Below, piece after piece: positions 11,506-64,000 of a stretch of DNA of 64,000 bases (position 1 is the stretch's first letter; every line of letters starts with the position of its first letter). This stretch comes from an uncultured Roseibium sp. (GTDB lineage: Bacteria; Pseudomonadota; Alphaproteobacteria; Rhizobiales; Stappiaceae): NCBI RefSeq assembly GCF_947496995.1, contig NZ_CANMFD010000001.1, forward strand, positions 242,692 through 306,691. The letters run 5' to 3'. The notes below the pieces were generated by a model, which made no database searches, was not told the DNA's origin, and saw nothing but the letters and a program-made list of their open reading frames with translations. The position numbers were made by a program, and so were the translations under genes.

Positions 11506-11771
11506 CCGTAATTCGTCGTCTGGCGATACAGCCGCAGCGATCCCGATTCAGGAAAAGCGTGCTGTTAATTAGACTCGCTGACTTGTGCGGTCAACGAAAC
11601 GCGAAATAGCGCGGCCGAGCTGACCCGGCTTCCCGTTTGAAAATTGGACAGGCTCTGCGCTTTCCGATAAGGCACCACCGGGTCGGTCGCCGCGATGAGA
11701 TACTCGAGTTAAAGTGTTCCGGATTTGCAGTCGCGTTCCGGGAGGCGGGGCCAGATGGTAGCACGGAAAGC

Positions 11772-40963: not shown

Positions 40964-41051
40964 CTCATCCGCTCATGACTGGATTGAAAAACGAGTTGGG
41001 AGCTTGCTTTGGGTTTGCTGGCTCGTTTCGGATAGTATAAAGACTTCTGCA

Positions 41052-43938: not shown

Positions 43939-43948
43939 AAGGTTTCTC

Positions 43949-48200: not shown

Positions 48201-48277
48201 CGGTCATGGATACGTTCAGCCGGTTCTCGCAGCCCGGCGTGTCCGCAAGACCGCTGAGTGAGTTGAAGCAGGCTTGA
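45248..48277 (+). CDS. NRPS, C(degenerate)-T-C tridomain (equivalent to VibF C1-PCP-C2)
   Basis: First C-domain core motif reads MHRIVEE (45758-45778) instead of HHxxxDG. T domain is FFDFGGHSL (Ser codon 46760-46762). Second C core is QHLALDE (47333-47353). Confidence 0.85.
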   Translation: MTGGFDRLLTESELEHFDEMLKSQEDHNQGAGAAVGTSDNWSLADPLGVTQHQERIWLAQQQDPALTLRHALAYRLGGIPEIARLTRAVDNVVEALPELSMRYRFSDDGELVKHQSGERGDTLEIVNVDSRQEAIALIMARQQAPWVSQSEPPFKVLVIFCLDEVILSLLMHRIVEEICTPEDVLKNLARAYDRKPFLPPATTHAEELDLASRDVAPVVWLRREEPGVAIAEFGASSQLPVASGRYAHRYGTVIETGTLPLPSDLASDISGALAFFGTRFARLLCRLGGHERIEVSFPAKPEDRLGDHSVAFASGESLKVLVSREAALQEDEARVISILSHATENMQANEGDPEGDLPKVSVKWLTDPHLFFEAQTVTLERVPLPTFEPRPDFELAIGRDAEGRIILELVTGQKISPHAGNLMLDLFTQQLNAENGKDAEGERQVNLPASIVGGTPLADRAGTPEEEQRADTAAIQAAILLEFREALAAPDLKADDDFFDFGGHSLVATRIIGRLLHNHGIELRFNDLFGNPTAAALARHARRVESAKEPVGNGPGEISTGNTDAATAPLALAQMSLWKIYSALGYNEIFNLPFALDFLDTVDETVFGEAFLDLMKRHAGLRTRFFEDEEGEVLQKVVPVSELENHKWFWTSDESTETDRRTEAGYCFDLSKELPVRLRFLKDPDTGRQVLSFLFQHLALDEWSVNLLMDELVEAYAARAAGSEPVWSGQPAPFHDFARKQVQAGVNTRHLAYWTDMLADAPRELVLFTEGPAPAEQPDGEGVAGGWVEMRLEKEISEGLYAIARENSASLFNVVYAAISAALQRLGNLTDLVIGTSASGRTDPDYFDTIGYFTTVVAHRVRFAGEPTVGTLIGNVKDMINGSMPYTDIPIDLVESALGMTSERDHLFDVFIQIHAQNKLNGNLPKPDGGRIAFRQVDPDKHESHLGLQFEVMEEVIDDDRAIRVLMSYQSRRYSPQQVDAIQAAVMDTFSRFSQPGVSARPLSELKQA

Positions 48278-48341: not shown

Positions 48342-49736
48342 CTACATCGGGAAATGCTGCGCCACCGCTCGAAGGTGTGTGGCAGAAGGGGTTTCTTCGA
48401 CAAGGTCACCAACCGGGCGGCCGAGCATCTCTGGCTGAAGGCTTCGCGACAGAAACGACGGTAGATCTCTTCCATGCCGTTCGAATTCCTTCCTGCCTGT
48501 CAGGTCCGGATCCGCATCCAGGCTGAGGACAAGTTCCCTGCCATCGCCTTCTCCCCGGAATGTGAGATTGAAACCGTCGGCCGGTCCGCTGCCGAGAATA
48601 TGCCGCTGTGCCCGGCAGCCGTTGAAGACCGGCGAATTGAACGGCAGCACGTTAATCAGCGGTGAGAAGAAATACCGGCTTCCTTCCGAAAGTCCCTGAT
48701 CCTTCGAAATCTGCTCGATCCTGAACCGGCTGTGCCGCCTCTGTTGCCTCAGCTCCTTGGCGGACCGTTTGAGAAAATCCGCCAAAGGTTCGGACCTGTT
48801 CACCTGCATGCGGAACGGCAGGATGTTGACCAGAAGGGCCGGCATATGCGCCCCCACGCTGCCCCAGCGGCTCATGAACGGCAGCCAAAGGGTCAGTGAA
48901 TCCGAAGACCGTTCTTGTGTCTCGGGCGCCGTTGCGAACAGGTAAAGACCGGACATCAGCGTGAGCAGATCGGGCCAGCCGAGGTCGACTGCTGCCGCGG
49001 CGGCCTGAAGTTTTGCGCTGAATTCGGACGGCAAGGGTATCCTGCTATGGAAACCGGGCTCGCCGTAGTCCTCGTCTCCCCGCTCCAGCACTTCGATACC
49101 TTCGGCCTTGCCGAAATAATCCGCCCAGTAGGCCCGGTCGGTTCGCCACTGGGCACTGTCCTGATACCGGTTTTCTTCGTCCAGAAAACTCGCGAGGGAG
49201 TGAAACGGAAGGCCGGCGTCACCCGTCCCGCAAAAATGATTGTAGAGCTGGGCGCAGCGCCGCTCGATCAGGGCAAGGCCATAGCCGTCGACAATGATAT
49301 GATGAGCGCGGATGTACCAGAAATAGCGCGCATCGCCGATCCGGTAGAGCGCATGGGCCGACAGCTTGTCGCTCCTGAGGTCGAGTTTTGCATTCAGGTC
49401 CTGTTCCATCAGCTCGATTGCGGCGGTCGGCGGACCATCCTCGCCTCTCAAATCGATGACCTGCAGCTCCGGCACGAGATCCGGATCGCAGATCTGCATC
49501 GGCGCTTCGCCTTGTTTTTCGGTGCGGAATCTCGCGGACAGGATTTCGGCTTCCCTGATGGTTTGGTCTATCGCGCGTTTCAGCGCGGCTTCATCCACGT
49601 CTCCTTCGATTTCAACATAATGTGCCACCGTTGAAACGGGCTGGTCGGGCTGGAAAGTGAATTCCTCCCAGAAATCGAGTTGCGGCAGGGTCAGCGGCAT
49701 CCAGTCGCCGTCGGGGTTGATGTCCGGCATGAACAA
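48342..49736 (-). CDS. stand-alone condensation enzyme (VibH-like amide synthase)
   Basis: 464 aa. PLTLPQLDFW N-terminus. Intact core motif AHHIIVDGYG. Strong SD AAGGAGG before the ATG. Confidence 0.85.
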   Translation of the reverse strand: MFMPDINPDGDWMPLTLPQLDFWEEFTFQPDQPVSTVAHYVEIEGDVDEAALKRAIDQTIREAEILSARFRTEKQGEAPMQICDPDLVPELQVIDLRGEDGPPTAAIELMEQDLNAKLDLRSDKLSAHALYRIGDARYFWYIRAHHIIVDGYGLALIERRCAQLYNHFCGTGDAGLPFHSLASFLDEENRYQDSAQWRTDRAYWADYFGKAEGIEVLERGDEDYGEPGFHSRIPLPSEFSAKLQAAAAAVDLGWPDLLTLMSGLYLFATAPETQERSSDSLTLWLPFMSRWGSVGAHMPALLVNILPFRMQVNRSEPLADFLKRSAKELRQQRRHSRFRIEQISKDQGLSEGSRYFFSPLINVLPFNSPVFNGCRAQRHILGSGPADGFNLTFRGEGDGRELVLSLDADPDLTGRKEFERHGRDLPSFLSRSLQPEMLGRPVGDLVEETPSATHLRAVAQHFPM

Positions 49737-49814: not shown

Positions 49815-52800
49815 TCAAAGTGTGGCCACAAGCTTTTGCACCTGGTCGGCGTTGCGGCATTGCAGAAGCTGTCTGGGGAGAATCTCGACACCGAATTCCG
49901 CGTTTATCCGGGTCGAGATCGATTTGAGATGCGACGGCAGAAGACCTATCGACAGGAAGTCGGTGGAACCGTCCACGGGGCCGCATTGCCTGTTGCCGAC
50001 AACGCCCAGATAGATATCGAGGACACGGCGGCTTTCCGGCTCCGATTGTGGTTGCTGCTGCGATGGCCGCCTGGCGGCCGGGGTCTCGGCAAAGAAGCTC
50101 CGCGCCTTTCGTCGGTCCGGCTTGCCGTTGGCTGAGAGCGGAATGCTGTCCACCCTCAGGAGCCGCGAAGGAACATGCGATTCCTGCAGATGCTGCCGTG
50201 CAAAGTTGCGCAGGTCCGCATCCGTAAGGCTGCTCCCGGCCACCGGTTCGTAGAGCGCCCCCAGTTCGGTCTCGCCGCTTCGCTCATTGCCCAGATCCGT
50301 CAGCAGGATCCGCGAGATCTCAGGATGTTTCACCAGTTCGTTCTCGACGTCAGGGATCGAAATCCGGACGCCGCGCACCTTGATGTAGCCCTGGACACGG
50401 CTGTCGAACAGAATGATGCCGTCGCGGCCGTACTTGCCCCGATCTCCCGACCGGAAAGCGCGAACACTCCGGCCGTGTTGATCCTCTATGGTGACGAAGT
50501 CATGCTGATGCAGCACGCCGTCCTCCAGGTATCCGAGTGCTGTGCTCACGCCACTGGAATGGATACGGCCGACCACGCCGGGCGGGCAGTGTTCACCGTG
50601 TTCGTTGAGGATGAAGTAGCTGTTGGCCGGCAGGGGGCGGCCATAGGGGATGTTGCCGGTATCCTCCGGGCCGATCCGGTGCCAGATGCTCCAGATTGTG
50701 GTTTCGGTCGGTCCACCGATCGAGCTCAGCCGCGTTCCGGGATTGGTTTTGCGCAACTCCGCGATCACCGCAGGCTTCAGATAGTCACCGCCCTGATTGA
50801 TCAGCCGCAAGGTTTTGAGTTCGTCCCCTTGCCGGCAGGAGAGCAGCATTTCGAAGATCGTCGGTACGGAGGACCAGATGGTCACGCCGTGTTCGGCGAC
50901 AAGCTGGTTCCAGCGCAAGGCGTCCTTCTCCTCACCCTGAACCGGCTGAACCAGCGTGGCTCCGGCGGTAAGACAGCCGAAGACCTCGTAGACCGACATG
51001 TCGTGATAGAGCGGACTGACGGAGATGAAGACGTCGTCGGATGTGATGTTCCATTCCGCATTTGTGCTGCCGACGACGTTGTCCGTAGACCTGTTGGACA
51101 GGACGACGCATTTCGGCTTTCCCGTCGTGCCGGAGGTGTAGAGATAATAGGCCGCTTGCGTGCTGGCCGAGAGGTCCTCAAGCGGCTGGGTCAGGGCAAG
51201 CGGGTCTTGGGTGGCCTCTGCGCCCAGCACGGTTTCGGCGCTGATGACCTCGTGGCCTTCCACGGGTGTGGACCCGATGACCAGATCCGGCTTGCAGTTG
51301 TCATAGAGGTATTTCAGCCGGTCCCGGGGCGCACAGGCATCGACGGGCACCCAGATGATGCCCCTCAGCGCACAGGCCAGGGCCAGCATTGTCTGTTCCG
51401 GTGAGCGCAGCAGCGACAGAACGACGATGTTGCCCTTGCCCAGCTTTCGCTCTTCCAGAAAGGTCATGGCCTTGTGCACGCCTTCGCCGAGGTCCGCATA
51501 GGAAAGACGGCGGTCGCCATAGATGAGGGCAGGGTTCGCGGGGGGCTGTTTGAACAGGTGGTCCGCGATGCGGCTCAGGTAGCCGCAGGCGACATAGTCC
51601 TCTTCCTGCGCATTGAACCGGTAGTGGCCGAAATCCAGAATGTCGCTGCTGGAAAACCGGAACTCTCCGGTCTCGCAGATGGTGGTCACGGCCTTGTCGA
51701 TTGCCGTCAGCATGTCCCGTATGACGGCCCCGTCGACCGCCTCCACGGCATAATCAAAATCGATCAGAAGCGCGCCGCCGCTGCCGGCAGACAGGCGAAT
51801 GTCGATCGCGACCTGCGGGGTCTGGGTCAGGCTGTCCTGCATTCGCACGGCATGATCGGCGGAAAGCGTCGGCCACGAAAGGCCGTTGGTAAGGACGACC
51901 GGCAAGGCGACGCCGCTGTCCGCACCGCTCCTGTCCAGCAGAAAGCGGTTGATGTCGACCCCGGAAAACGAAAGGTGCTCCAAGCCTTCCAGAACGTCCT
52001 TCTGCAGTGTCTGCGCGCGAGCCGGCAGATCGCCCGTTGGAGGCCCGTCCCATGCCACCGCGAAAAAGGTCGATTTGTTCGCGGTGGCGCTACCGGCTTG
52101 AGGTGCCGCCGGGATGCCGACATGAAGCGATCCCTCGCTGAGCCAGTGTGACAGGACTTCGAGGATCACTGCGGCCAAGGTCGTGTTCTGGAAAAGACCG
52201 TTCTTCGCACCCAGGCGGGAGAATTTCCGGAAACGGTCTCTGTCGATAACCAGTTTCTCCCGGTCATACCGGGATGTCCGGATGCTTTCCAGCGGTCGTT
52301 TCCAGGGCAGATGCGGAGCCCCTTCGTAGTCCGAAAGCTTTGTCTTCCAGTAGGCAGCATCCCGCGCGACCATGCTGCGATCCGGTGCCTTCGCGGGCTC
52401 GGTGGGGGCACTGGTTTCAGGTCGTGTGTCCTCGAACAGTTCGACCATCAGGGCTGCGATGGAAAATCCGTCCAGGATCAGGGCATCGAAGCGGAAGAAC
52501 ACCGCACAGGTGTCACCGGTCTTTTCGGCCGGGTCGGGCAGCGTGAAGGCAACGGCGCGCCAGGGAGGGCCGGTCAGGTCGAACAGCTGATGAGTGAATT
52601 CCTGTTTCAACTCGCTGATCTTGCGGTCGGCCTCCTCCAGGGACAGGCCTGACAGATCGATGCTGACGAAATCGACGGACGGGGTTTGCAGGACATGTCT
52701 TGAATAGGTCTTGCGGTCGATAACGGTGCGCAGGCTCTCGTGCCGTTCCGCCAGCAATGTCAGTCGCCGCTCCAGAAGCGACAGGTCGAAACGGCCGCGA

Positions 52801-52898
52801 TATTCGCGGAATTCCTGCATGGCCACGCCGCCAAGCGGTACATATTCGCTCCTGCCCAGGAGATAGGCGCGCTGCAGGGACGTCAGGTCGGTTTCCAT
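49815..52898 (-). CDS. NRPS, Cy-A-T (heterocyclisation, adenylation, thiolation)
   Basis: Cy core FDALILDGFS (DxxxxDxxS). A-domain motifs YLYTSGTTGKPK, GGPTETTIWS and KVRGVRI. C-terminal carrier-like DFLSIGLLPSHL. Start at METDLTSLQRAYLLGR (ATG 52898). Confidence 0.85.
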   Translation of the reverse strand: METDLTSLQRAYLLGRSEYVPLGGVAMQEFREYRGRFDLSLLERRLTLLAERHESLRTVIDRKTYSRHVLQTPSVDFVSIDLSGLSLEEADRKISELKQEFTHQLFDLTGPPWRAVAFTLPDPAEKTGDTCAVFFRFDALILDGFSIAALMVELFEDTRPETSAPTEPAKAPDRSMVARDAAYWKTKLSDYEGAPHLPWKRPLESIRTSRYDREKLVIDRDRFRKFSRLGAKNGLFQNTTLAAVILEVLSHWLSEGSLHVGIPAAPQAGSATANKSTFFAVAWDGPPTGDLPARAQTLQKDVLEGLEHLSFSGVDINRFLLDRSGADSGVALPVVLTNGLSWPTLSADHAVRMQDSLTQTPQVAIDIRLSAGSGGALLIDFDYAVEAVDGAVIRDMLTAIDKAVTTICETGEFRFSSSDILDFGHYRFNAQEEDYVACGYLSRIADHLFKQPPANPALIYGDRRLSYADLGEGVHKAMTFLEERKLGKGNIVVLSLLRSPEQTMLALACALRGIIWVPVDACAPRDRLKYLYDNCKPDLVIGSTPVEGHEVISAETVLGAEATQDPLALTQPLEDLSASTQAAYYLYTSGTTGKPKCVVLSNRSTDNVVGSTNAEWNITSDDVFISVSPLYHDMSVYEVFGCLTAGATLVQPVQGEEKDALRWNQLVAEHGVTIWSSVPTIFEMLLSCRQGDELKTLRLINQGGDYLKPAVIAELRKTNPGTRLSSIGGPTETTIWSIWHRIGPEDTGNIPYGRPLPANSYFILNEHGEHCPPGVVGRIHSSGVSTALGYLEDGVLHQHDFVTIEDQHGRSVRAFRSGDRGKYGRDGIILFDSRVQGYIKVRGVRISIPDVENELVKHPEISRILLTDLGNERSGETELGALYEPVAGSSLTDADLRNFARQHLQESHVPSRLLRVDSIPLSANGKPDRRKARSFFAETPAARRPSQQQPQSEPESRRVLDIYLGVVGNRQCGPVDGSTDFLSIGLLPSHLKSISTRINAEFGVEILPRQLLQCRNADQVQKLVATL

Positions 52899-52914
52899 GG
52901 TGTCTCCGGTGGGG

Positions 52915-54561
52915 TTATTCGGCGGGTTGGGCGTCCAGAGAGGCCCGTTTGCGTGCGTTGACAGCTTCCAGATAGGCGCGGCCAACTTTCTCGGACGCGC
53001 CGCCGGATCGCGCCTTGAGGAGGCCCGCAATCGAACCGGCTGTGCTTGCCGGGCCCATGTCGTCGAGGCTCAAGGCGGCAGCCGGGATGTAGCGGTTGAT
53101 GAACGCGATGAAGCTCGACAGGTCATCCTCCGACAGGCCGAGGTCGCGGATTTTTCCGGTCGCGTGTGTGGCCATGCCGGGCGCCAGCCGTCCCAGCAAT
53201 TCCTTCAACATGCCTTCGGTCGGGCTTTTGTGATTTTCGGCAGCATACGCCGGCGTCCGGCTGGAAAACGCCGGCCGCTCAAGTGCCGTGGGATCGGCGG
53301 CAATCTCCCTGACCAGCGCCACGTAGCTGTCGAAGGCGGCCTTGATCCAGGTTTCGGGAAGGGCGTCGTAGCGGATGTCCCAGTTTATGAGGATACCGCC
53401 GTCCATGTGCGCGACCTGGGCATCAAGAGCGACCTGGGGCCCCTGGGATACTGCCCAGGTCATCGGCCCGAAGACACGGGTTACCCGCTGCGAAAACAGA
53501 TCGCCTCCCGGCAGATCGAGACCTGAGGTGAACACGATCGGAGCTGTCTGCAGGGATCGCCGTGTCCGCGACAGATCCCGCATCACGTTCACGCCCGGAT
53601 AGGCGGAATGCGCCAGCAGATCGACCATCTGTTCCGCCAGGCTTTTGCAAAGCGACCGGAGGCTTTCATCGGGGGGCGGGGCGACCGCAAGAATGAGGAT
53701 GTTGGAAAAGTCTCCAACCGTCCGCTCGACATCCGGTGTGTAGGGCGCACGCCAGAACATTGGCACGTTGAGGCGAAATCGCTCGTCGCCCGTTGCCTTC
53801 GCGATGACCGAGGCAAACAGTCCGAGCATCAGGGCGGACGGTGTGACGCGCAGGTCGCGTGCGGCCAGTTCGAGAGACCGACGCTCCACGGACGTCAGCA
53901 TCGCTGCCAGCCGGCCGCTTCGAACCTCTCCGGAAGTGGCAATCGCCGGCAATTTCGGTTCCGGGGGCAGGTCAGCCAGACGGCTCTGCCACCAGCCTTT
54001 GTCCTCCTGCTGCTTTCGGGCGAGTTCCGCGTCGGAATTTTTTCGCTCAAGCCAGTCGAAAAAGCCCGTTTCGGCCTCTTCGGCATCGATTTCGGGCGTG
54101 TTGTAAAACCGCGCGAGGTCTTCCATCAGAAGGCAAAAACTCGGCGGGTCGATGGCCGTCATGTCCATGTCGACATGCAGCCGGCAGGTGCCGCCGGGCA
54201 GCAGACTGAGCCCGAAGGCGGAGGTTTGCCCGGCCTCGAGGTCGAGTGTCCGGCAGGTCCATTCCTGCCGCTTGCGTTCCAGGTGCCGCTCGAGCGAACC
54301 CGCCTCCAGCTCCCTCAGGTCCTCGACCTCGTAGGAAAGGCTTTCTTCTGCTTTTCCAATATCTTGCCTCCCATCTGGGGTGACGCGCATGCGCATCATG
54401 CCATGGGTTTCGTAGAGCTTCGGGATGGCTTCGCCGAGCCTCTGCGGGTCGATCGATCCACAATCGAATTCCACATAAAGATGGGCCGAGACGTTTCCGA
54501 GGAAGCCGTTGGCTTGCCGGCCCGTCCAGTAGGCTGCTTGCATGGGTGTGAGATTTTTCAT
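52915..54561 (-). CDS. stand-alone heterocyclisation (Cy) domain protein with ~100 aa carrier-like tail
   Basis: LTPMQAAYWTGR N-terminus. Cy core VDMDMTAIDPPSF (DxxxxDxxS). Start taken at ATG 54561 (MKNLTPMQ); the track ORF begins at an upstream TTG. Confidence 0.8.
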   Translation of the reverse strand: MKNLTPMQAAYWTGRQANGFLGNVSAHLYVEFDCGSIDPQRLGEAIPKLYETHGMMRMRVTPDGRQDIGKAEESLSYEVEDLRELEAGSLERHLERKRQEWTCRTLDLEAGQTSAFGLSLLPGGTCRLHVDMDMTAIDPPSFCLLMEDLARFYNTPEIDAEEAETGFFDWLERKNSDAELARKQQEDKGWWQSRLADLPPEPKLPAIATSGEVRSGRLAAMLTSVERRSLELAARDLRVTPSALMLGLFASVIAKATGDERFRLNVPMFWRAPYTPDVERTVGDFSNILILAVAPPPDESLRSLCKSLAEQMVDLLAHSAYPGVNVMRDLSRTRRSLQTAPIVFTSGLDLPGGDLFSQRVTRVFGPMTWAVSQGPQVALDAQVAHMDGGILINWDIRYDALPETWIKAAFDSYVALVREIAADPTALERPAFSSRTPAYAAENHKSPTEGMLKELLGRLAPGMATHATGKIRDLGLSEDDLSSFIAFINRYIPAAALSLDDMGPASTAGSIAGLLKARSGGASEKVGRAYLEAVNARKRASLDAQPAE

Positions 54562-54586
54562 TGCGACTTTTGGTGTTGACAAAACA

Positions 54587-54601
54587 TGAGTCTTATACTC
54601 A
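54587..54601. promoter_or_regulatory. TGAGT-N5-ACTCA palindrome (TGA-N9-TCA form) in the 80-bp divergent promoter between the Cy gene and entC
   Basis: TGAGTCTTATACTCA is centred in the 54562-54641 spacer, next to a TTGACA hexamer (54576-54581). The form matches the RirA IRO-box pattern. Confidence 0.45.
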
Positions 54602-54641: not shown

Positions 54642-55823
54642 ATGACAATCGGAGCGCGAGTTATGTGCCATGAAGACATGGCCATCCTGCCTGATACCAA
54701 GACAAAATTTCTGTTCACCTCAGGCGAAAATGAGCTGCATGCGGACGGGATTCGCGAGCGAATCACCGTGCCGGTCCGAAACGGAGGAGCGGCTGGAAAC
54801 TTCTTCAAGAAGGCGGTTGACGAAGCCCTGGAAAGAGCGAAATCGGCCGGACAGGAAAACCCGATCGTGGTCGGCGCCATTCCGTTCGATCTGGGAGAGG
54901 TTTCCTGCCTCTATGTGCCGGAAAACCATGCATGGCGGGTTCGTGACGCAGGTGAAAGTCTGCCGGTCAGTCAATTCGGCATGCCGGCCCTGCTCGAGCA
55001 GCGAAGCCTTCCTGACGAATCAGGGTTCAAACGCGCGGTGCGGCACGCAATCGTCAATTTCCAGCACAGCGATGTCCGCAAGGCTGTGCTCTCCGTCGTG
55101 CGGGAACTGCAGTTTGCAGGGCCGATCGATGTCGATGGACTGCTGCGAAGTCTGCGGGCGCAGAACAAGGACGGCTACCAGTTTCAGGTGCCTCTGCCTG
55201 AAGGCGGCGAGCTGATTGGTGTCAGCCCGGAACTGCTGTTGCGCAAAACCGGGAACCGGTTTGTCTCCAATCCGCTTGCCGGCTCCACGAAACGGCTGAT
55301 TGATCCCGCTGCGGACAAGGATGCCGGTGAGAGGTTGCTGATCTCCGAGAAGGACCGGTACGAGCACAGGCTGGTCGTCGAGGACATCCAGCGCATTCTC
55401 GAACCCCACTGTGCCGGGCTCGAGGTGCCGGACCATCCCTCGCTCCTCAGTACGGCAACCCTCTGGCATCTTTCGACCCGGATCGGGGGCGTGCTTGACG
55501 ACCCGTCGGTGACGGCACTGCAGCTTGCCTGCATGCTCCACCCGACTCCTGCCGTTTGCGGCTATCCGACCGAACTGGCGCACAGGCTCATCCGTTTTGT
55601 CGAACCTTTCGAACGCGGACTGTTTACCGGAATGGTCGGCTGGTGCGACGCGCAAGGCAACGGCGAATGGGTGATCACCATCCGCTGCGGCATCGTCGAG
55701 CACGAGACAATACGGCTTTTCGCCGGTGCCGGCATCGTCGAGGCATCCCAGCCGGACAGCGAATGGGCCGAGGTCCAGACCAAGCTGGGCACCATGCTCA
55801 ACGCCTGCGGCATCGCCGCCTGA
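54642..55823 (+). CDS. entC: isochorismate synthase
   Basis: ATG 54642 follows AGGAGA. Contains [10 protein letters not shown]…[10 protein letters not shown] and the C-terminal chorismate-binding GMVGW…GEWVITIRC…GAGIV. Confidence 0.88.
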
Positions 55824-55857: not shown

Positions 55858-57492
55858 ATGACTATCGACTTTCATCATTGGCCTGCCGAGCTGGCCGGGC
55901 GCTACCGGGCGCGTGGCTACTGGATCGACCGGCCGCTAACGCAAATTCTGGAACAGCATCTGGAGGGAAAACCGTTCGCGCCGGCGGTGATCTGCGGCGA
56001 GCGGACGTTCAGTTACGAGCAGCTTGACCGCCTGTCCTCCAACCTTGCCGCCAGACTGGCCTCCAAGGGCATCGGGCCGGGCGATACGGCGCTCGTGCAA
56101 CTGCCGAACGTTGCCGAATTCTACATCGTTTTCTTTGCGCTGCTGAAAGTCGGCGTGGCACCGGTCAACGCGCTTTACAGCCACCGCAAGCACGAGATGA
56201 CGGCCTACGCACGGCAGATCAGACCGAGGCTTCTGGTGGCGAGCCGTCTGCACGAATTGTTCAGGACCGATGATTTCATCAAGGAGCTGCGCGTCCTGCA
56301 CGATGATCCCCTGGCGGTGCTTCTGTTGGGAGAGGATGCTCCCGGCTCCAGTCTGTCGCAGTGGCTGCAGAGCGAACCGGACGGTGTGCAACCGGAGTTT
56401 GGCCCGACGGACCCCGGCGAGGTGGCCTTTTTCCAGCTTTCCGGCGGCAGCACGGGCACGCCCAAGCTCATCCCGCGGACGCATAACGACTACGACTACA
56501 GCGTCCGGGCCAGCGCCGAGATCTGCGGATTGACGCCTGAGACGCGGTATCTGTGTGCGTTACCGGCGGCGCATAACTTTCCTCTCAGTTCTCCAGGCGC
56601 GCTTGGCGTTTTCCATGCGGGTGGCTGCGTGGTGCTGGCGCCGAGCCCGGAACCGCTTTCCTGTTTCGCGCTTGTGCGGAAGCACAGCGTGACCATGGCG
56701 GGCCTGGTACCGTCGGCCGTGAACCTCTGGCTTCAGGCGGCGCCCGATCACCGCAGCGCCCTTGAAAGCCTGGATCTGCTGCAGGTGGGAGGGGCGCATT
56801 TTCCCGAGTCTCATGCCCGGCTTGTCCCTCAGGTGCTGGGGTGCAGGCTGCAGCAGGTCTTCGGCATGGCCGAGGGGCTGGTGAACTACACACGCCTCGA
56901 CGATCCGGAAGAACGCATCTTCACCACACAGGGACGCCCGATCAGCCCTGATGACGAGATCAAGGTCGTGGACGAGGATGGACAGCCGGTTGCCGATGGT
57001 GAAGAAGGCCGGCTCGCGACGCGTGGCCCCTACACCTTCCAGGGCTACTACCGGAGCCCGGACCATAACCGCGAGGTCTTCGACGACGAGGGCTTCTACT
57101 ATTCCGGCGACCTGGTCTGCCGCACGGAAGGCGGTTACCTGAGCGTGGTCGGGCGGGTGAAGGACCAGATCAACCGGGGCGGGGAGAAGATCGCCGCCGA
57201 AGAGGTCGAAAGCCTGCTTCTGCTGCACCCGGATGTGCGCGAGGCGGCCCTGGTGGCGATACACGATCCGACTCTCGGCGAAAAAAGCTGCGCGGTGATC
57301 GTCTCCGACAATTCCTGCATCAAGCCGCTGGCACTCCGGCGTCATCTGATGTCGCTCGGCATCGCCGATTACAAGCTGCCCGACCGCTTCAGTTTCGCCG
57401 AAGCCATCCCCCTCACTGCCTTCGGCAAGCCCGACAAGAAAAAGCTGCGCGCGGACCTCGCGCAGAAATTCGCTCCCGCACTAACCGCATAA
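55858..57492 (+). CDS. entE: 2,3-dihydroxybenzoate-AMP ligase
   Basis: [16 protein letters not shown]-terminus, [21 protein letters not shown] and QVFGMAEGL, typical of EntE/DhbE/VibE. Confidence 0.9.
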
Positions 57493-57501
57493 AGGTGTGT
57501 C

Positions 57502-58368
<867 letters not shown>

Positions 58369-58387
58369 GGACAAGGGAGAGCCCGCC

Positions 58388-59143
58388 ATGTGGCAGCGTC
58401 AGTTCGGCGGTAAACGTGTGCTGGTGACCGGGGCCGCCAGCGGGATCGGCCGCCGCATCGCCGAGCGCTTTTGCGAGGCCGGTGCGGAGGTCGTCGGACT
58501 GGACCGGCAGCCAGGAGAACCGGGCCTGCCGTTCCGGCTCGTTCAGCTCGATGTCACCGATGCGGAGCAGGTGGCCGATGTCTGCAACGCGCTCAAGACC
58601 GACATTGATCGCCTGGATATCCTGGTCAATGCGGCGGGCGTTCTGAGAACCGGTGCGGCCGAAGACCTGACGCCGGAAGACTGGCAGGCCTGTTTTGCCG
58701 TCAACGCAAGCGGTCCGTTTTATCTGCTCCGGCAGTGGATCCCGGTGTTCAAGGCACAACGCGCGGGCGCCATCGTCAACATCGCGTCGAACGCGGCACA
58801 TGTGCCGCGCACCGGCATGACCGCCTACTGCGCCTCGAAGGCGGCCATGGCCAGCCTCAGTCACTGTATCGGCCTCGAACTGGCGCCTTATGGCGTCCGT
58901 TGCAATGTCGTCTCGCCGGGGTCGACGGATACGCCGATGCTCAGCAACATGGTCGGCGGCAGTGCCGGATATCAGCGGCTGGTTTCGGGCCTGCCCGACC
59001 AGTTCAAGCTCGGCATACCCCTCGCCAAGATAGCGACCAGCGACGATATCGCCGAAACGGCCCTGTTCCTTGCTTCCGATCTGGCCGGCCACATCACCCT
59101 TCAGGACATCGTGGTGGATGGAGGGGCAACCCTCGGAGCCTAG
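58388..59143 (+). CDS. entA: 2,3-dihydro-2,3-dihydroxybenzoate dehydrogenase
   Basis: SDR with VLVTGAASGIGR and YCASKAA. Position after entB. Start at ATG 58388 behind AAGGGAGAG. Confidence 0.85.
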   Translation: MWQRQFGGKRVLVTGAASGIGRRIAERFCEAGAEVVGLDRQPGEPGLPFRLVQLDVTDAEQVADVCNALKTDIDRLDILVNAAGVLRTGAAEDLTPEDWQACFAVNASGPFYLLRQWIPVFKAQRAGAIVNIASNAAHVPRTGMTAYCASKAAMASLSHCIGLELAPYGVRCNVVSPGSTDTPMLSNMVGGSAGYQRLVSGLPDQFKLGIPLAKIATSDDIAETALFLASDLAGHITLQDIVVDGGATLGA

Positions 59144-59196: not shown

Positions 59197-59211
59197 GAAT
59201 TTCAGAAATTC
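59197..59211. promoter_or_regulatory. perfect 15-bp palindrome GAATTTC-A-GAAATTC upstream of the O-methyltransferase gene
   Basis: Seen directly. Lies 24 nt before ATG 59235, in the 91-bp gap after entA. Confidence 0.35.
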
Positions 59212-59234: not shown

Positions 59235-60278
59235 ATGTCCGCACCCCAAGCAGTTTCACAAGATCAGTCGGCCGCTATGCCGCCGTTCAAGCTGATGGCG
59301 CAGATCACGGCCTATCGCACGTCCCAATGTATCCGGGCCCTGGTCGAACTCGGCATTCCCGCACTTCTGGAGCAGGACGCAAGGTCGGTGGAAGACCTCG
59401 CGCAGGCAACCGGGACGCAGCCCGGTCTGCTCGACCGGCTGCTGAACCACCTCGTCAACGAGGAGGTCATCGGCAAGGATGACGAGGGCCGTTACATAGC
59501 GCTGCCTGTCACCGTCCACCTGGTGCCCGGACACCCGCGGAGCCTGAGCAACTGGGTCGCCTGTGAACTCGATCCGCTCCTGTGGCGCTCCTGGGAGAAC
59601 CTCACCGAACAGCTGCGGTCCGGAACAACGGCTTTCGACCTGGCCCACGGGTCTGCTTTTTTCGAATGGCACGCACAGGACAGCGAGGCCCAGAAGCGTT
59701 TCGACGACCAGATGAATGGCGCTTCGCGCGGCATAGGCGCCGTTGTCGTCCAGACCCTGCAGTTCGAACCGGGCACGAGGCTGACGGATGTCGGCGGAGG
59801 CAACGGCTCGTTCCTGGCCCAGACGCTGGAAAAAAATCCGGGAACCGAGGGCATCCTGTTCGAACTGCCGCGATCTTCCGAAGACTTCGACCCGTTGTTC
59901 GAGGAGATGCAGCGGCAGGGCCGGGCAACCGTTACCAACGGATCGTTTTTCGAAAGCGTTCCCGGCGGCGCGGATGTTTACCTGTTCAGCCGTGTCTTTC
60001 ACGACTTCAACGATGAGGCGGCGACGCTGATCCTGAAGAACACCAGACGCGCCCTCGCCGGAGGCGAGCGCCTGCTGCTGATCGACATGATGGCCAATGA
60101 TGCGCAGGCCGGAGCACGCGGGTCCTCGCAGGACATCTTCATGCTCACGCAGCTCGGCGGGCGGGAGCGGACGGCAGAAGAATTTTCCGGTCTTCTTGCC
60201 AAATCCGGGTTCGAGACGCTATCCGTCACACCAACGGCAAGCCCGGTCAGCATCTTGGAGTTTCGCCCGGCGGTTTGA
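59235..60278 (+). CDS. class I SAM-dependent O-methyltransferase (Methyltransf_2 / COMT-like with N-terminal winged-helix dimerisation domain)
   Basis: 347 aa. LTDVGGGNGSF SAM motif. N-terminal LVELGIPALL…VEDLA dimerisation-type segment. C-terminal DVYLFSRVFHDFNDE. Confidence 0.8.
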   Translation: MSAPQAVSQDQSAAMPPFKLMAQITAYRTSQCIRALVELGIPALLEQDARSVEDLAQATGTQPGLLDRLLNHLVNEEVIGKDDEGRYIALPVTVHLVPGHPRSLSNWVACELDPLLWRSWENLTEQLRSGTTAFDLAHGSAFFEWHAQDSEAQKRFDDQMNGASRGIGAVVVQTLQFEPGTRLTDVGGGNGSFLAQTLEKNPGTEGILFELPRSSEDFDPLFEEMQRQGRATVTNGSFFESVPGGADVYLFSRVFHDFNDEAATLILKNTRRALAGGERLLLIDMMANDAQAGARGSSQDIFMLTQLGGRERTAEEFSGLLAKSGFETLSVTPTASPVSILEFRPAV

Positions 60279-60384
60279 CACCGGGGTGCTGGTCTGTCAC
60301 GCGACGTCTGGAAACCGGGGCATGCGCTTCTTCGCCTGAAGATGTGGCCGATGGTTCGGCCACATGCAATTTGGACATGGACAC

Positions 60385-61482
60385 ATGATCGAGACCCCCT
60401 ATTACCTGATCGACAAGGCAGGCCTGCTCCGCAATCTGGAGAAGATCGCCTACGTGCGCGAACGCTCGGGCGCCAGGGCGCTTCTGGCGTTGAAGTGCTT
60501 TGCAACGTGGTGCGTGTTCGACTTCATGCGCGACTATATGGACGGAACCACCTCGTCTTCTCTGAACGAGGTCCGGCTCGGCCATGAGCGTTTCGGCAAG
60601 GAGACACATGCCTATTCGGTCGCCTATGCCGACTATGAGATCGACGAGGTGATTTCCCATGCGGACAAGATCATCTTCAATTCGATCAGCCAGCTGGAGC
60701 GGTTCGCCGGAAAGTCCGCGGGCATCGTGCGCGGGCTGCGTCTCAATCCTCAGGTGAGCTCATCCAGCTTCGATCTGGCCGATCCCGCCCGCCCGTTCTC
60801 GCGCCTTGGCGAGTGGGATGCGGCGAAGGTGGCCAAGGTCATGGACCGGATCAGCGGCTTCATGATCCACAACAACTGCGAGAATTCCGACTTCGCGCTG
60901 TTCGACAGAATGCTCACGGACATAGAGGCGAAATTCGGCGCGCTGCTGGAACAGGCCGAATGGGTCAGCCTCGGCGGAGGCATTCATTTTACCGGCGAGA
61001 ACTATCCGCTGGACCTGTTCGCTGACCGGCTGAAAGCGTTTTCGGAGAAATATGGCGTCCAGGTTTACCTGGAGCCGGGCGAAGCTGCGATCACCAACTC
61101 CACGACGCTGGAGACAACCGTGCTGGACACGCTGTTCAACGGCAAGAACCTCGCGATCGTCGATGCGTCCATCGAAGCGCATATGCTTGATCTTCTGATC
61201 TACCGCGAAAGCGCAAAGGTCGCGCCGAACACGGGCGACCACCCCTACATGATTTGCGGCAAGTCCTGCCTTGCCGGCGACATTTTCGGGGAGTTCAGCT
61301 TCCCCGAAGACCTCAAGACCGGTGACCGTGTGTCCATTCAGGATGCGGCCGGTTACACGATGGTAAAGAAGAACTGGTTCAACGGCGTGAAAATGCCGGC
61401 CATCGCGGTGAAGGAACTGGACGGGTCCATGACGTCCGTCCGCGAATTCACCTACCGGGATTACGAACAAAGTCTGTCCTGA
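60385..61482 (+). CDS. nspC: carboxynorspermidine/carboxyspermidine decarboxylase
   Basis: MIETPYYLIDKAGLLRNLE, ALKCFA (PLP Lys region), and ICGKSCLAGD near the C-terminus. An alternative ATG at 60364 lies inside a hairpin. Confidence 0.85.
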   Translation: MIETPYYLIDKAGLLRNLEKIAYVRERSGARALLALKCFATWCVFDFMRDYMDGTTSSSLNEVRLGHERFGKETHAYSVAYADYEIDEVISHADKIIFNSISQLERFAGKSAGIVRGLRLNPQVSSSSFDLADPARPFSRLGEWDAAKVAKVMDRISGFMIHNNCENSDFALFDRMLTDIEAKFGALLEQAEWVSLGGGIHFTGENYPLDLFADRLKAFSEKYGVQVYLEPGEAAITNSTTLETTVLDTLFNGKNLAIVDASIEAHMLDLLIYRESAKVAPNTGDHPYMICGKSCLAGDIFGEFSFPEDLKTGDRVSIQDAAGYTMVKKNWFNGVKMPAIAVKELDGSMTSVREFTYRDYEQSLS

Positions 61483-61529: not shown

Positions 61530-62768
61530 ATGAGAAAAAATGTTCTCATTATCGGCGCCGGAGGTGTCGCACAGGTGGTGGCGCACAAATGCGCACAGAA
61601 CAACGATGTTCTCGGCGATATTCACATCGCCTCGCGCACCGGGTCCAAGTGCGATGACATCATCAAGTCAGTTCATGAGAAGAACGCGCTGAAACAGCCC
61701 GGTGTCCTCGAAGGGCATGAGTTGAACGCCCTCGACATTGACGCCACTGCAGAGCTGATCCGCAAGACCGGGTCCCAGATCGTCATCAATGTGGGCACCG
61801 CTTTTCTGAACATGTCGGTGCTCAGCGCCTGCCTCAAGACCGGTGCGGCCTATATCGACACGGCCATTCACGAAGAGCCGGGCAAGATCTGCGAGACTCC
61901 GCCCTGGTACGCGAACTATGAATGGAAGCGCGCCGAGGAGTGCGAAAAGGCAGGCGTGACCGCCATTCTCGGAGCCGGGTTCGACCCCGGTGTGGTCAAC
62001 GCCTATGCGCGTCTTGCCAAGGACGATTATCTCGACAAGGTCACCGAGGTCGACATTGTCGACATCAATGCGGGCAGCCACCAGCAGTATTTCGCCACCA
62101 ATTTCGATCCGGAGATCAACTTCCGCGAATTCACCGGCACGGTCTACTCCTGGCAGAAGGGAAAATGGCAGGAGAACAGCATGTTCGAGATCGGCAAGGA
62201 ATATGACCTGCCGGTCGTCGGCAAGAGCAAGGCCTATCTCTGCGGCCATGACGAGGTGCATTCCCTGTCGAAGAACATGGACGGCGCGGATGTGCGCTTC
62301 TGGATGGGGTTCGGCGAACACTATATCAACGTCTTCACCGTCCTGAAGAACATCGGCCTGCTGTCGGAAAAGCCGGTCACCACCGCGGAAGGGCTGGAAG
62401 TGGTGCCGCTGAAAGTGGTCAAGGCCTGCCTGCCGGATCCGTCGTCGCTGGCGCCCGAATACACTGGCAAGACCTGCATCGGCGACTTCGTCAAGGGCAT
62501 CAAGGACGGCAAGGAACACGAGGTGTTCATCTACAACGTTGCCGATCACAAGGAAGCTTATGAGGAAGTCGGCAGCCAGGGCATCTCCTATACGGCCGGC
62601 GTGCCGCCGGTTGCGGCAGCAATGCTGATCGCCACCGGCGAATGGGACGTGAAGAAGATGGCCAACGTGGAAGAACTGCCGCCGCATCCCTTCCTCGCCA
62701 TCCTCAACCGGATCGGCCTGCCGACCCGAATCAGGGACGCCGACGGCGACCGGGCGATCGAATTCTGA
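61530..62768 (+). CDS. carboxynorspermidine/carboxyspermidine dehydrogenase (saccharopine dehydrogenase family)
   Basis: VLIIGAGGVAQVVAHK Rossmann motif, 412 aa. Typical pairing with nspC. Confidence 0.85.
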   Translation: MRKNVLIIGAGGVAQVVAHKCAQNNDVLGDIHIASRTGSKCDDIIKSVHEKNALKQPGVLEGHELNALDIDATAELIRKTGSQIVINVGTAFLNMSVLSACLKTGAAYIDTAIHEEPGKICETPPWYANYEWKRAEECEKAGVTAILGAGFDPGVVNAYARLAKDDYLDKVTEVDIVDINAGSHQQYFATNFDPEINFREFTGTVYSWQKGKWQENSMFEIGKEYDLPVVGKSKAYLCGHDEVHSLSKNMDGADVRFWMGFGEHYINVFTVLKNIGLLSEKPVTTAEGLEVVPLKVVKACLPDPSSLAPEYTGKTCIGDFVKGIKDGKEHEVFIYNVADHKEAYEEVGSQGISYTAGVPPVAAAMLIATGEWDVKKMANVEELPPHPFLAILNRIGLPTRIRDADGDRAIEF

Positions 62769-62848: not shown

Positions 62849-62869
62849 GTGTTTCAGGTTCCGCCTGTT

Positions 62870-64000
62870 CTAGAAAGTAGCCTTCGCACCGATGCCGAAC
62901 ATGCGCGGTTCCGTCATGATCGCGAAGTTGGCAACACCTGGCCGGTTTTCCATGTAGGTCGGAACACGCTCGTCGAAAATGTTGTTCACGTAGCCATAGA
63001 TCTGGAAGTGGTCGTGGACCTGGAAAGTCGCACGGGCATTGGCGATCGTATAGGGATCCACCTGAAGCGCCGGTGTGTTGAGATCGTCGGAATAATAGCC
63101 ATCGAAATGTTCGACATTCGCCGAGAGCGTCAGCCTTTCCATGACGGTCCAGTCCACTCCGGCACCGATCGTATATCCCGGGGCCTTGCTGAATTCGTTG
63201 CCTTCCACGTTGGGAAGCGTATCGAATTGCGTGATTTCGCTCTGCATCACGCCGGCGTTCGCGTTGACGCGCAGGTTGTCCAGGATCTGGTAGCTCATCG
63301 CAAGTTCAAGACCGTAGGCATGCGCCTCCTCCGCGTTCAGCGTCAGCAACTGGGTCACGCTGCTGCCCGGAAGGGTGGTCTGGAAATACCGCTGGGAGTC
63401 CTGGTAGTCCGTGTAGAACACGTTAGCCGAGACAAGCAGCGCGTCGTCCAGCAGGTTGGCGCGGCCGAAGATCTCATAGTTCCAGGACGTTTCCTCCTTG
63501 AACGGACGCGCCGTGCCGCTGAAGAAATCGAAGCCGACCCCGCCGGGGTTGAAACCGCGGTTCACCAGGCCGCCAACGGTCACGTCGGGCGTGATGTTGT
63601 AGGCAAGCGCGATCTTTGGCAGAAGCGCGTTGAAAGTCTCGTCATAATCGAAACTCACCGGCACGGCGCCCGCCGTCGTCGACTGACCTTCGCGCTTGAT
63701 CCGGTCGCTCTCGAAGCGCAGTCCGCCCGTCAGCGTCCAGGCCTCATTGATGCGGTAGTCGAGCTCGGTGAAGACACCCAGGTTGGTTTTGGAATCTTCG
63801 AAGTCCGGCGACCCGTTGTAGGGCAGCAGCAGGCTTTCATCCGAGTGGGTATAAGAGCCATAGAGACCGGCGACACCGCTGATCGTGCTGTCCGCGCTGC
63901 CGAAATTCACCAGTGTCTCGTTCGACCAGTTCTGCTGGTCGATCTTTGCGTCGCCATTGCCGACGGGATCCAGGCTGCGGTCCACATAGAGATCGGTATA
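62870..64000 (-). CDS. TonB-dependent outer-membrane receptor, C-terminal beta-barrel part (5' end beyond window)
   Basis: Alternating beta-strand pattern with terminal …FGIGAKATF (C-terminal Phe). The reading frame is open to the window edge. Confidence 0.8.
   Translation of the reverse strand, partial: YTDLYVDRSLDPVGNGDAKIDQQNWSNETLVNFGSADSTISGVAGLYGSYTHSDESLLLPYNGSPDFEDSKTNLGVFTELDYRINEAWTLTGGLRFESDRIKREGQSTTAGAVPVSFDYDETFNALLPKIALAYNITPDVTVGGLVNRGFNPGGVGFDFFSGTARPFKEETSWNYEIFGRANLLDDALLVSANVFYTDYQDSQRYFQTTLPGSSVTQLLTLNAEEAHAYGLELAMSYQILDNLRVNANAGVMQSEITQFDTLPNVEGNEFSKAPGYTIGAGVDWTVMERLTLSANVEHFDGYYSDDLNTPALQVDPYTIANARATFQVHDHFQIYGYVNNIFDERVPTYMENRPGVANFAIMTEPRMFGIGAKATF

Follow-up and report, generated by a model that had tools for sequence, protein, structure and literature searches.

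The question raised by this locus is why a cluster for a catechol siderophore should contain a methyltransferase. Catechol siderophores depend on free ortho-hydroxyls, and here a methyltransferase gene lies between entA and nspC, with all three on the plus strand, in a 64,000-nucleotide stretch of DNA from an uncultured Roseibium sp., called the window below. A preliminary description, made from the letters of the window alone, had put the gene at this position and in the setting of a catechol siderophore cluster with polyamine genes. The position holds, with the flanking genes identified by the model scores in Table 1, and the setting, a siderophore cluster combining 2,3-dihydroxybenzoate (DHB), polyamine and NRPS genes, is borne out by the annotation of the cluster and by the loci of orthologues.

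Table 1. Features of the siderophore cluster and its surroundings (positions in the window)
Feature	Position	Strand	Evidence or remark
NtaA/DmoA-family FMN monooxygenase	39656..40963	-	Divergent from importer; pairing with importer conserved
Ferric-siderophore ABC importer: ATPase, two FecCD permeases, periplasmic binding protein	40932..44914	+	Pfam
NRPS C-T-C protein, resembling the C1-PCP-C2 part of VibF	45248..48277	+	
Free-standing condensation enzyme, 464 aa, HHIIVDG, VibH-like	48342..49736	-	
NRPS Cy-A protein, 1071 aa, DxxxxDxxS, VibF Cy2-A-like	49815..53030	-	
Stand-alone cyclisation (Cy) domain protein, 555 aa, DxxxxDxxS, VibF Cy1-like	52915..54582	-	
Operator TGAGTCTTATACTCA, RirA-box type, TGA-N9-TCA	54587..54601	.	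Divergent promoter between Cy gene and entC
entC, isochorismate synthase	54643..55823	+	Likely start ATG 54643 after AGGAG; listed ORF from 54561
entE, (2,3-dihydroxybenzoyl)adenylate synthase	55861..57492	+	NF008192, 869 bits vs 783
entB, isochorismatase-aryl carrier protein fusion	57502..58368	+	Pfam Isochorismatase + PP-binding
entA, 2,3-dihydro-2,3-dihydroxybenzoate dehydrogenase	58358..59143	+	NF006074, 376.8 bits vs 312
Perfect palindrome 7-1-7 GAATTTCAGAAATTC	59197..59211	.	5' of methyltransferase
Methyltransf_2 methyltransferase, 347 aa, N-terminal dimerisation domain	59235..60278	+	Pfam, AF2 model, Foldseek, dN/dS
10-bp stem-loop just 5' of nspC	60342..60365	+	Folded
nspC-type carboxy(nor)spermidine decarboxylase	60385..61482	+	TIGR01047, 407.5 bits, just below 409.05
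Carboxy(nor)spermidine dehydrogenase-like protein	61530..62768	+	Pfam Sacchrp_dh; NF043000 447.7 bits, below the 800 cut-off
TonB-dependent siderophore receptor, 3' part	62870..64000	-	Full gene 742 aa, extends beyond window end

Composition of the cluster

The cluster resembles those of the vibriobactin (Vibrio cholerae vib), agrobactin and parabactin type in its entC/E/B/A-type DHB supply, its free-standing VibH-like condensation enzyme with an HHxxxDG motif, its putative polyamine genes, its TonB-dependent receptor and its FecCD-type importer, a likeness of domains and motifs. The two Cy domains, the A domain and the C-T-C protein together presumably reproduce the domain order of VibF. Unlike in vibriobactin, the VibF counterpart is divided among three proteins, and the methyltransferase is extra. 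According to the preliminary description, the canonical vibriobactin and agrobactin clusters are not known to contain such a gene, and the related clusters without one that are described below fit this.

Several gene assignments in the window need comment. EntC passes the subfamily model TIGR00543 with 309.4 bits against a cut-off of 224.75, and falls below the cut-offs of the equivalog models DhbC and EntC (NCBIfam). The homologue of the stand-alone Cy-domain protein is a CDS of its own in PGAP annotation. Alignment of relatives gives 60385 as the conserved start of nspC, the ORF being listed from 60364, and both R. suaedae and the R. aggregatum plasmid lack the polyamine genes in their cluster. 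The full receptor gene is found as L084:162-2390 (-) and is followed, outside the window, by a gene for an IclR regulator, L084:2641-3435 (+). Two ORFs are rejected as genes: orf323 (53608-54579 +) is an antisense shadow over the Cy-domain gene and orf384 (from 62849, +) one over the TonB-dependent receptor gene, and the tblastn matches to them in relatives are matches to the minus-strand genes opposite. A link between the NtaA/DmoA-family monooxygenase and the methyltransferase was also considered and rejected, since the monooxygenase occurs in one cluster without the methyltransferase as well.

The methyltransferase

The methyltransferase ORF runs from an ATG to a TGA, is present as a single copy in the genome, and has a coding bias like that of the neighbouring genes (GC3 0.76). 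An AAAAGGA ribosome-binding site 8-10 nt 5' of the ATG is retained in relatives. Pfam assigns residues 120-327 to Methyltransf_2 (PF00891; E = 2.7e-41; 141.6 bits, cut-off 22.3; profile positions 1-210 of 210) and residues 17-87 to the O-methyltransferase dimerisation domain (PF08100; E = 3e-10; 40.2 bits, cut-off 25.6), so the family and the N-terminal domain first read from the translation are confirmed, as is the LTDVGGGNGSF motif at residues 183-193. At E <= 0.001 these are the only two Pfam matches, with none to Methyltransf_3, the Mg-dependent catechol O-methyltransferase family. The early label of COMT-like is therefore apt in the sense of the plant caffeate-type, cation-independent enzymes and wrong in the sense of a Mg-dependent catechol O-methyltransferase. 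The Methyltransf_3 enzymes (mammalian COMT, CCoAOMT, SafC-type) would carry out the same formal reaction, methylating one catechol hydroxyl, but they form a separate family and work by another mechanism, in which the catechol is held on Mg2+.

The AF2 model has a pLDDT of 91.8 and a pTM of 0.86, with residues 16-75 helical. Foldseek finds its best matches, at TM 0.83-0.85, in the SAM/SAH-bound structures of LaPhzM, the phenazine O-methyltransferase of Lysobacter antibioticus (PDB ID: 6c5b), and MmcR, the mitomycin 7-O-methyltransferase (PDB ID: 3gwz). Both have the same two-domain fold and share the SAM glycine motif and the His and acidic residues; phmmer aligns them over almost the full length with E ~1e-49 at 31-32% identity. 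The SAM-binding DxGGGxG motif is D185-V-G-G-G-N-G191, which is invariant in 15 orthologues. In the alignment with LaPhzM and MmcR, H256-D257 falls on their HDW motif, and D284 and E311 fall on acidic residues of both. H256 and E311 do not vary across the 15 orthologues, and D284 shows at least 90% conservation. We take the His to be the catalytic base and the acidic residues to support it, as in plant COMT/IOMT and bacterial O-methyltransferases. One difference is at position 237, a Ser (GSFF) in the clade of the methyltransferase but an Asp (GDFF) in LaPhzM and MmcR. Another is the setting, since LaPhzM and MmcR act on polycyclic hydroxy-phenazines and quinones of antibiotic pathways, whereas the enzyme here belongs to a siderophore cluster.

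The methylated atom cannot be read from this homology, because the nearest solved relatives, with some 30% identity, include O-, S- and N-methyltransferases. What can be said is that the gene is under strong purifying selection, with dN/dS of about 0.1 (0.035/0.399; 0.126/1.20). Among proteins of 609-2000 aa, no fused long form of the enzyme was found at E <= 1e-40, which is weak evidence.

Linkage to the cluster

Co-occurrence of the gene with homologous clusters, a point raised in the preliminary description, is strongly positive. All 12 orthologues in reference genomes (52-93% identity) lie inside the same entCEB(A)/VibH/VibF-type cluster, in Roseibium/Labrenzia, Bosea, Chelativorans and Rhodomicrobium, representing four families, and the linkage survives rearrangements. 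Homologues of 28-40% identity have entC or entB at 0 of 68 loci. In a sample of 61 genomes of the genus, EntE and the methyltransferase orthologue are found in the same 7, and the trees of the two proteins, which were the two genes compared, have no supported conflict. Seven metagenome loci with at least 54% identity can be added: four have the full cluster, two end at the gene and show the receptor and the IclR regulator, and the remaining one (L100) has a truncated copy beside an unrelated ABC transporter and a peptidase. Orthologues with 74-76% identity are carried on 11 plasmid records of Roseibium/Labrenzia, and in the one record inspected RefSeq annotates the protein just as 'methyltransferase'. 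Others are found in Rhizobium sp. L1K21 and, at 53-55% identity, in the gammaproteobacteria Billgrantia and Modicisalibacter.

Where upstream DNA is available, L100 excepted, the gene adjoins biosynthesis genes, following entA or entA and then a PPTase gene. It is inside the biosynthetic operon in Roseibium, Chelativorans and Rhodomicrobium. In Bosea it stands directly behind the TonB-dependent receptor gene and co-directional with it (5/5 genome loci), and is convergent with the PPTase gene and entB. The receptor is accompanied by the IclR regulator, which is weakly PcaR/PcaU/PobR-like, at 11 of the 13 methyltransferase loci whose receptor side is available, and no IclR gene was seen in the stretches examined of 3 clusters without the methyltransferase. 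Since such homologous clusters exist (L081 and L082 among them), the methyltransferase is an accessory gene, probably for tailoring. It is no passenger: Roseibium and some few further alphaproteobacteria have it as a conserved part of this vibriobactin/agrobactin-type cluster. As a side observation on L081, bearing on the idea that the methyltransferase might stand in for a siderophore-interacting reductase (SIP), a SIP-like gene, read from sequence alone, follows entA there; the genome bearing the methyltransferase has a SIP gene elsewhere.

Operator and intergenic elements

The operator TGAGTCTTATACTCA has a single exact match in the window and is conserved at 6/6 aligned loci (Roseibium, Chelativorans). 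Elsewhere in the genome TGA-N9-TCA recurs ahead of the receptor gene and of genes for heme and siderophore uptake. The RirA box (IRO) of Rhizobiales was published as the palindrome 5'-TGA-(N9)-TCA-3' (Rodionov et al. 2006, PMC1698941), and the operator before entC and the receptor gene fits it both in form and in sitting before iron-uptake genes. The motif here is longer than the published one, (A)TGAGT-N5-ACTCA(T), and RirA is its putative binder in Stappiaceae. In the 91-nt gap between entA and the methyltransferase, the scan gave no promoter-like or terminator-like site, and from this absence of predicted signals the methyltransferase is probably transcribed with entCEBA from an iron-repressed promoter.

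Behind the methyltransferase, the stem of the hairpin at 60342-60365 is preserved in L002 and L003 even though both of its arms have changed there. No U tract follows it, and it is not among the terminator-scan results. This conserved hairpin was counted against co-transcription.

The preliminary description had also drawn attention to a perfect palindrome preceding the gene. The 7-1-7 palindrome GAATTTCAGAAATTC is there as described, but any significance is lost on comparison, since the window has 15 such palindromes in all (5.8 +/- 2.1 expected from 50 shuffles) and this one is intact in only one of four aligned relatives, the 93%-identical L001. We therefore find no evidence of a regulatory site, reject it as one, and regard the palindrome as probably functionless.

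Acceptor and stage of methylation

The aryl pocket of EntE bears on when a methyl group might be added. Its residues are identical to those of BasE at 6 of 6 positions (Asn242, Phe243, Ser247, Val336, Val344, Tyr346, BasE numbering), one of them being the serine that forms a hydrogen bond to the 3-OH of DHB. Motifs with Asn242, Ser247 and Val336 are also retained in EntE of the clusters L081 and L082. With a pocket equal to that of BasE, EntE probably activates unmodified DHB, and the methyl would be added afterwards.

The reading that we prefer, with somewhat better than even confidence, is that of a SAM-dependent, cation-independent tailoring enzyme of a vibriobactin/agrobactin-type pathway, acting on a hydroxyl of the DHB unit after adenylation. 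EntE would activate the DHB made by EntCBA and load it onto the EntB carrier, and assembly would proceed through the VibH-like amide synthase and the split VibF-like Cy-Cy-A / C-T-C synthetase with a spermidine-type polyamine. In the cytoplasm, the methyltransferase would methylate one of the two hydroxyls of a 2,3-dihydroxybenzoyl unit, probably that at position 3. Its acceptor would be DHB-S-carrier, a DHB-polyamine or DHB-oxazoline intermediate, or the finished molecule, and the product a 2-hydroxy-3-methoxybenzoyl congener (+14 Da). We infer the O-methylation of a catechol, its position and its stage. Counted against this reading were the approximately 30% identity to any characterised enzyme, the Bosea gene order, and the clusters functioning without the methyltransferase.

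A conserved and probably iron-regulated methyltransferase in such a cluster means that an undescribed methoxy variant of a catechol siderophore may be made. Loss of chelation, one of the effects first proposed, is one option among several: a DHB-oxazoline with a methyl on its 3-oxygen could retain iron binding of the phenolate-oxazoline kind. Parabactin and vulnibactin reportedly bind iron in that mode. Passages of a review give their structures, name parabactin, agrobactin, fluvibactin, vibriobactin, vulnibactin and serratiochelin A as the natural members of the group, and mention methoxybenzoyl groups solely as synthetic protecting groups. In the literature searched, in which the structure of labrenzbactin was not seen, no natural O-methylated catechol or aryloxazoline polyamine siderophore was found. 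Labrenzbactin, described as a catecholate, is the only siderophore that we found reported from the genus.

A more ambitious version of the preferred reading is possible, although we would not count on it, namely that these bacteria make a polyamine catechol siderophore that is O-methylated, the first natural one of its kind, with one or more arms switched from catecholate to phenolate-oxazoline and with a private receptor and IclR module. With the methyl on the 3-OH of the DHB-oxazoline unit, or on that of every DHB unit, parabactin-type coordination would then arise without a salicylate pathway. The methyltransferase, the TonB-dependent receptor and an aromatic-sensing IclR would form a lock-and-key module that reserves the iron complex for the producing strain.

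The alternative that survives best, though we consider it unlikely, is that the enzyme serves inactivation, recycling or detoxification, methylating free DHB, imported apo-siderophore or fragments inside the cell, and so blocking intracellular iron chelation or redox-cycling or rendering iron release irreversible. The position behind the receptor gene in Bosea argues for it, as does the pairing of receptor and IclR at most methyltransferase loci with no IclR seen in the examined stretches of 3 clusters lacking the enzyme, and methylation of catechols is familiar as an inactivating step for siderophore-mimic drugs. Placement within the biosynthetic operon in the three other genera speaks for a pathway enzyme instead; moreover, on general chemistry, iron-bound catecholate oxygens are poor methyl acceptors, and no demethylase or dedicated exporter was found beside the gene.

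It is quite unlikely that the protein is a pathway enzyme with another target, be it an N, C or S atom, a part other than DHB, or an RdmB-like use of SAM without transfer. The suggestion comes from the structural and phmmer neighbours at similar scores, which include DtpM (S-methyltransferase acting on a thiol), PhzM and RosA (N-methyltransferases) and RdmB (a hydroxylase). Against these stand the retained catalytic His and acidic residues, typical of O-methylating members, and the fact that the DHB hydroxyls are the sole aromatic hydroxyls made by the cluster; acylation presumably uses up the polyamine amines when a vibriobactin-type molecule is assembled. That the gene is an unrelated neighbour without a siderophore role, for which the bare RefSeq label and the displaced L100 copy could be cited, is very improbable given the linkage across four families despite rearrangements, the exact match to EntE in presence and absence, the agreement of the two trees and the purifying selection.

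The need for free ortho-hydroxyls, taken together with a methyltransferase under selection in the cluster, leads to either undescribed methoxy-siderophore chemistry or an undescribed chelator switch-off. Either outcome would bear on iron competition and on self-protection from own chelators in marine and soil alphaproteobacteria, and on the reason why catechol-based 'Trojan horse' drugs lose activity when methylated. Strains of Roseibium aggregatum with the cluster on plasmids exist in culture collections.

The siderophore cluster

The gene set around the methyltransferase follows, as its predicted proteins read, a vibriobactin/agrobactin-type assembly logic, with the difference that the domain order of vibriobactin VibF is split here into three proteins. 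In NCBIfam, nspC scores slightly below its equivalog cut-off and the dehydrogenase far below its own, so the polyamine backbone may be either spermidine or norspermidine.

Features of the siderophore cluster in the window
Feature	Position	Strand	Remarks
NtaA/DmoA-family FMN monooxygenase	39656-40963	-	TIGR03860, 375 bits vs 279.7
Ferric-siderophore ABC importer: ATPase, two FecCD permeases, binding protein			beside the monooxygenase
NRPS C-T-C protein			after the ABC importer
VibH-like condensation enzyme		-	HHIIVDG; after the C-T-C gene
Cy-A protein		-	DxxxxDxxS; after the VibH-like gene
Cy (cyclisation-domain) protein, 555 aa	52915-54582	-	DxxxxDxxS; after the Cy-A gene
entC, entE, entB, entA, methyltransferase, nspC, carboxy(nor)spermidine dehydrogenase-like gene		+	in that order
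Methyltransferase	59235-60278	+	the gene of the row above; ATG start, 347 codons, TGA stop
TonB-dependent siderophore receptor, 742 aa	62870 to past window end	-	convergent, last in cluster; IclR regulator next

Two plus-strand ORFs, 53608-54579 and 62849-64000, were rejected as genes or cluster markers, being antisense shadows of the Cy-domain and receptor genes. They have no Pfam match, but since tblastn finds strong hits to them in relatives, they may mislead annotators. The monooxygenase adjoins the importer in the window, the Bosea clusters, and also genome G067, whose cluster is without the methyltransferase (L007:5445-6719; L095:8613-9914). As some members of its family break down synthetic chelators, it may act on the imported siderophore. 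A 10-bp stem-loop at 60342-60365, just 5' of the conserved nspC start (60385) and with no U tract after it, keeps its stem despite changes on both sides in the related loci L002 and L003, and may serve in processing or stability of the message between the two genes.

The methyltransferase and its family

The preliminary description of this DNA had placed a Methyltransf_2-type protein with an N-terminal dimerisation domain between entA and nspC on one strand, and both points stand. The protein's only two Pfam matches at E <= 0.001 are Methyltransf_2 over residues 120-327 (E = 2.7e-41) and the O-methyltransferase dimerisation domain over residues 17-87 (E = 3e-10); the gaps are 91 nt to entA and about 106 nt to nspC, with all three genes on the plus strand. 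No specific NCBIfam model fits, the top match, BchU, reaching 51 bits where its cut-off is 276. GC3 is 0.76, in line with neighboring genes, a conserved AAAAGGA ribosome-binding site lies immediately 5' of the ORF, and dN/dS is about 0.09 against locus L001 and 0.10 against L002. The perfect palindrome noted upstream does exist, as the 7-1-7 sequence GAATTTCAGAAATTC at 59197-59211, but we discount it as a meaningful element, as it is one of 15 such palindromes in the window (5.8 +/- 2.1 in shuffles) and is intact in 1 of 4 aligned relatives, the closest one at 93% identity.

The AlphaFold2 model has high confidence (mean pLDDT 91.8, pTM 0.86) and is based on 83 sequences. Foldseek and phmmer agree on LaPhzM (6c5b) and MmcR (3gwz) as the nearest solved structures, with TM 0.83-0.85, E about 1e-49 and 31-32% identity, and next find AlpH, the thiol methyltransferase DtpM, TnmH, CalO1, PhzM, RosA, Plu489x enzymes, DnrK, and NcsB1. 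The glycine motif D185-G191 is in place. In the alignment, LaPhzM and MmcR have their HDW motif opposite H256-D257 and acidic residues opposite D284 and E311, and all of these positions are invariant or nearly so in 15 orthologues. Such residues act in plant and bacterial O-methyltransferases as the catalytic base and its supports and would do so here, and the enzyme looks catalytically complete.

Linkage to the cluster across genomes

The methyltransferase belongs to the siderophore cluster. Its co-occurrence with homologous clusters, proposed earlier as a check, is borne out: entCEB(A) and Cy-A genes adjoin it in all 12 loci with 52-93% identity, and entC or entB is found in 0 of the 68 other returned loci, which have 28-40% identity. 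The 12 are from one-genome-per-species reference contigs (5 Roseibium/Labrenzia, 4 Bosea and 1 Boseaceae bacterium, 1 Chelativorans, 1 Rhodomicrobium), and orthologues of Billgrantia, Modicisalibacter and Rhizobium sp. L1K21 fall outside these counts. Metagenomes add 7 loci of at least 54% identity, at least 2 of which seem to come from organisms already present among the genome loci and are not independent; 4 have the full cluster, 2 are cut at the gene but keep receptor and IclR on its uncut side, and the seventh, L100, is an N-terminally truncated copy. That copy is a 259-aa ORF (L100:6658-7437, 54% identity) without the dimerisation domain, on a short contig, adjoining an unrelated ABC transporter, GntR regulator and M24 peptidase.

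Eleven Roseibium/Labrenzia megaplasmid records carry the gene at 74-76% identity, and plasmids of 270-540 kb carry the cluster in R. aggregatum and the THAF strains of Labrenzia. On the one examined closely, R. aggregatum NZ_CP045623.1 (L092, L176), the gene comes after dhbA, annotated just as "methyltransferase"; the C-T-C synthetase gene is about 170 kb off on the same plasmid, and nspC and the dehydrogenase are absent from the cluster. Within an even sample of 121 genomes of the family, EntE (at least 78% identity) and the orthologue (at least 59%) are in the same 7 of 61 genus genomes, source genome included, which describes a pattern among kin that are not independent and carries no statistical test. 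Between trees of the methyltransferase (14 rows) and of EntE (16 rows) there is no supported conflict, and the methyltransferase has the longer branches.

Homologous clusters without the gene exist, so it is accessory, not universal. These hold VibH-like, Cy-A, Cy, entCEBA, and C-T-C genes, and are found in G439 and G462 of another family (EntE 67-69% identical), in G067 of the same family (65%), and more distantly in G022 and G028. They are interspersed in the EntE tree among clusters that have the gene, which by tree position argues that it is a gene gained or lost more than once. In G067 the EntE gene (L082, C23:80189-81886) has an in-frame TAA, and that cluster, where the methyltransferase is absent, may be decaying.

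Probable stage of the proposed methylation, and alternatives

EntE of the window is about two-thirds identical to BasE and matches it at 6/6 DHB-pocket residues, which in BasE are Asn242, Phe243, Ser247, Val336, Val344, and Tyr346, with Ser247 hydrogen-bonding the C3 hydroxyl of DHB (Gulick and co-workers, PMC12005286). The EntE motif LSSPG, missed by the search pattern in L005 and L083, and a second motif of 10 residues do not differ between clusters that have the methyltransferase and those that lack it. Judged by these residues, EntE is built for unmodified DHB; hence methylation most likely follows adenylation, and the acceptor would be the carrier-bound aryl group, an intermediate, or the finished molecule.

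We lean, by a modest degree, to a tailoring O-methyltransferase giving a 2-hydroxy-3-methoxybenzoyl congener of a vibriobactin/agrobactin-type siderophore. Iron binding could survive such O-methylation, by the coordination mode of the oxazoline arm in parabactin and vulnibactin. Once methylated on its 3-OH, a DHB-oxazoline would be similar to the 2-hydroxyphenyl-oxazoline arm that these two siderophores have (structures in the review PMC9450019). In open-access papers we found neither a natural O-methylated catechol or aryloxazoline polyamine siderophore nor a characterised member of this methyltransferase clade. Labrenzbactin, the one siderophore we found reported from the genus, is described in open-access papers just as a catecholate; should it bear a methoxy group, this chemistry would not be new.

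The main rival, inactivation or recycling of DHB or apo-siderophore inside the cell, is rather unlikely. It draws on the tendency of methyltransferase, receptor and IclR regulator to co-occur and on the arrangement in Bosea, where the gene is directly behind the receptor gene, co-directional with it and convergent with PPTase and entB. In Roseibium, Chelativorans and Rhodomicrobium it is the end of the ent operon, after entA or a PPTase that follows entA. The IclR gene is beside the receptor gene in 11 of the 13 methyltransferase loci whose sequence includes the receptor side (among them L001, L002, L004, L005, L092 and the Bosea loci), and was not seen in the stretches examined of three clusters without the methyltransferase. 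A little less likely again is some other acceptor atom or substrate, still within the pathway; with about 30% identity to the nearest enzymes, in a family also methylating S and N, the acceptor atom is not readable from homology. An unrelated passenger is very improbable for a gene with the linkage described.

Two neighbors deserve mention. The IclR regulator, just past the window end (L084:2641-3435, plus strand), is weakly PcaR/PcaU/PobR-like. A 4'-phosphopantetheinyl transferase (PPTase) adjoins the methyltransferase in several relatives (L005:9109-9810, L008:1330-1968, L012:9044-9772, Bosea loci about 11010-11650), and no homologue of the L012 protein was found anywhere in the window.

A probable iron operator and likely co-transcription

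In the 81 nt that separate the divergent Cy and entC genes stands TGAGTCTTATACTCA, at 54587-54601, which has no other exact match in the window. Around it, the block TTGACAAAAcATGAgT...ATACTCAgGTATT is retained in 6/6 aligned loci, Chelativorans included, and is better conserved than the methyltransferase protein downstream in the operon (56-93% identity, same loci). Some 40 nt 5' of the receptor gene, slightly past the window end, there is a second copy (L084:2429-2445), which L001, L002, L004 and L005 have as well. The window motif, (A)TGAGT-N5-ACTCA(T), fits the published RirA-box consensus, 5'-TGA-(N9)-TCA-3' (Rodionov et al. 2006, PMC1698941).

With up to 1 mismatch, the core occurs 29 times genome-wide. 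Seven of the other 27 sites were inspected, the 3 exact ones and 4 of the 24 with one mismatch, chosen for operator-like flanks; 5 of the 7 precede genes for heme or siderophore uptake (one HemS/receptor pair, one receptor, and three genes of Peripla_BP_2 or FecCD type) and 2 do not. The palindrome thus likely marks an iron regulon in this genome. As a consensus scan of the entA-methyltransferase gap found no promoter-like or terminator-like site, the operator points to a likely iron-repressed co-transcription of the methyltransferase with entCEBA. Operator copies in the source genome are at C3:29464, C3:372479, C1:1180471, C2:435323, and C8:46603, and one copy (L091) is flanked by a Peripla_BP_2 gene on one side and the gene of a Methyltransf_11-type methyltransferase on the other.
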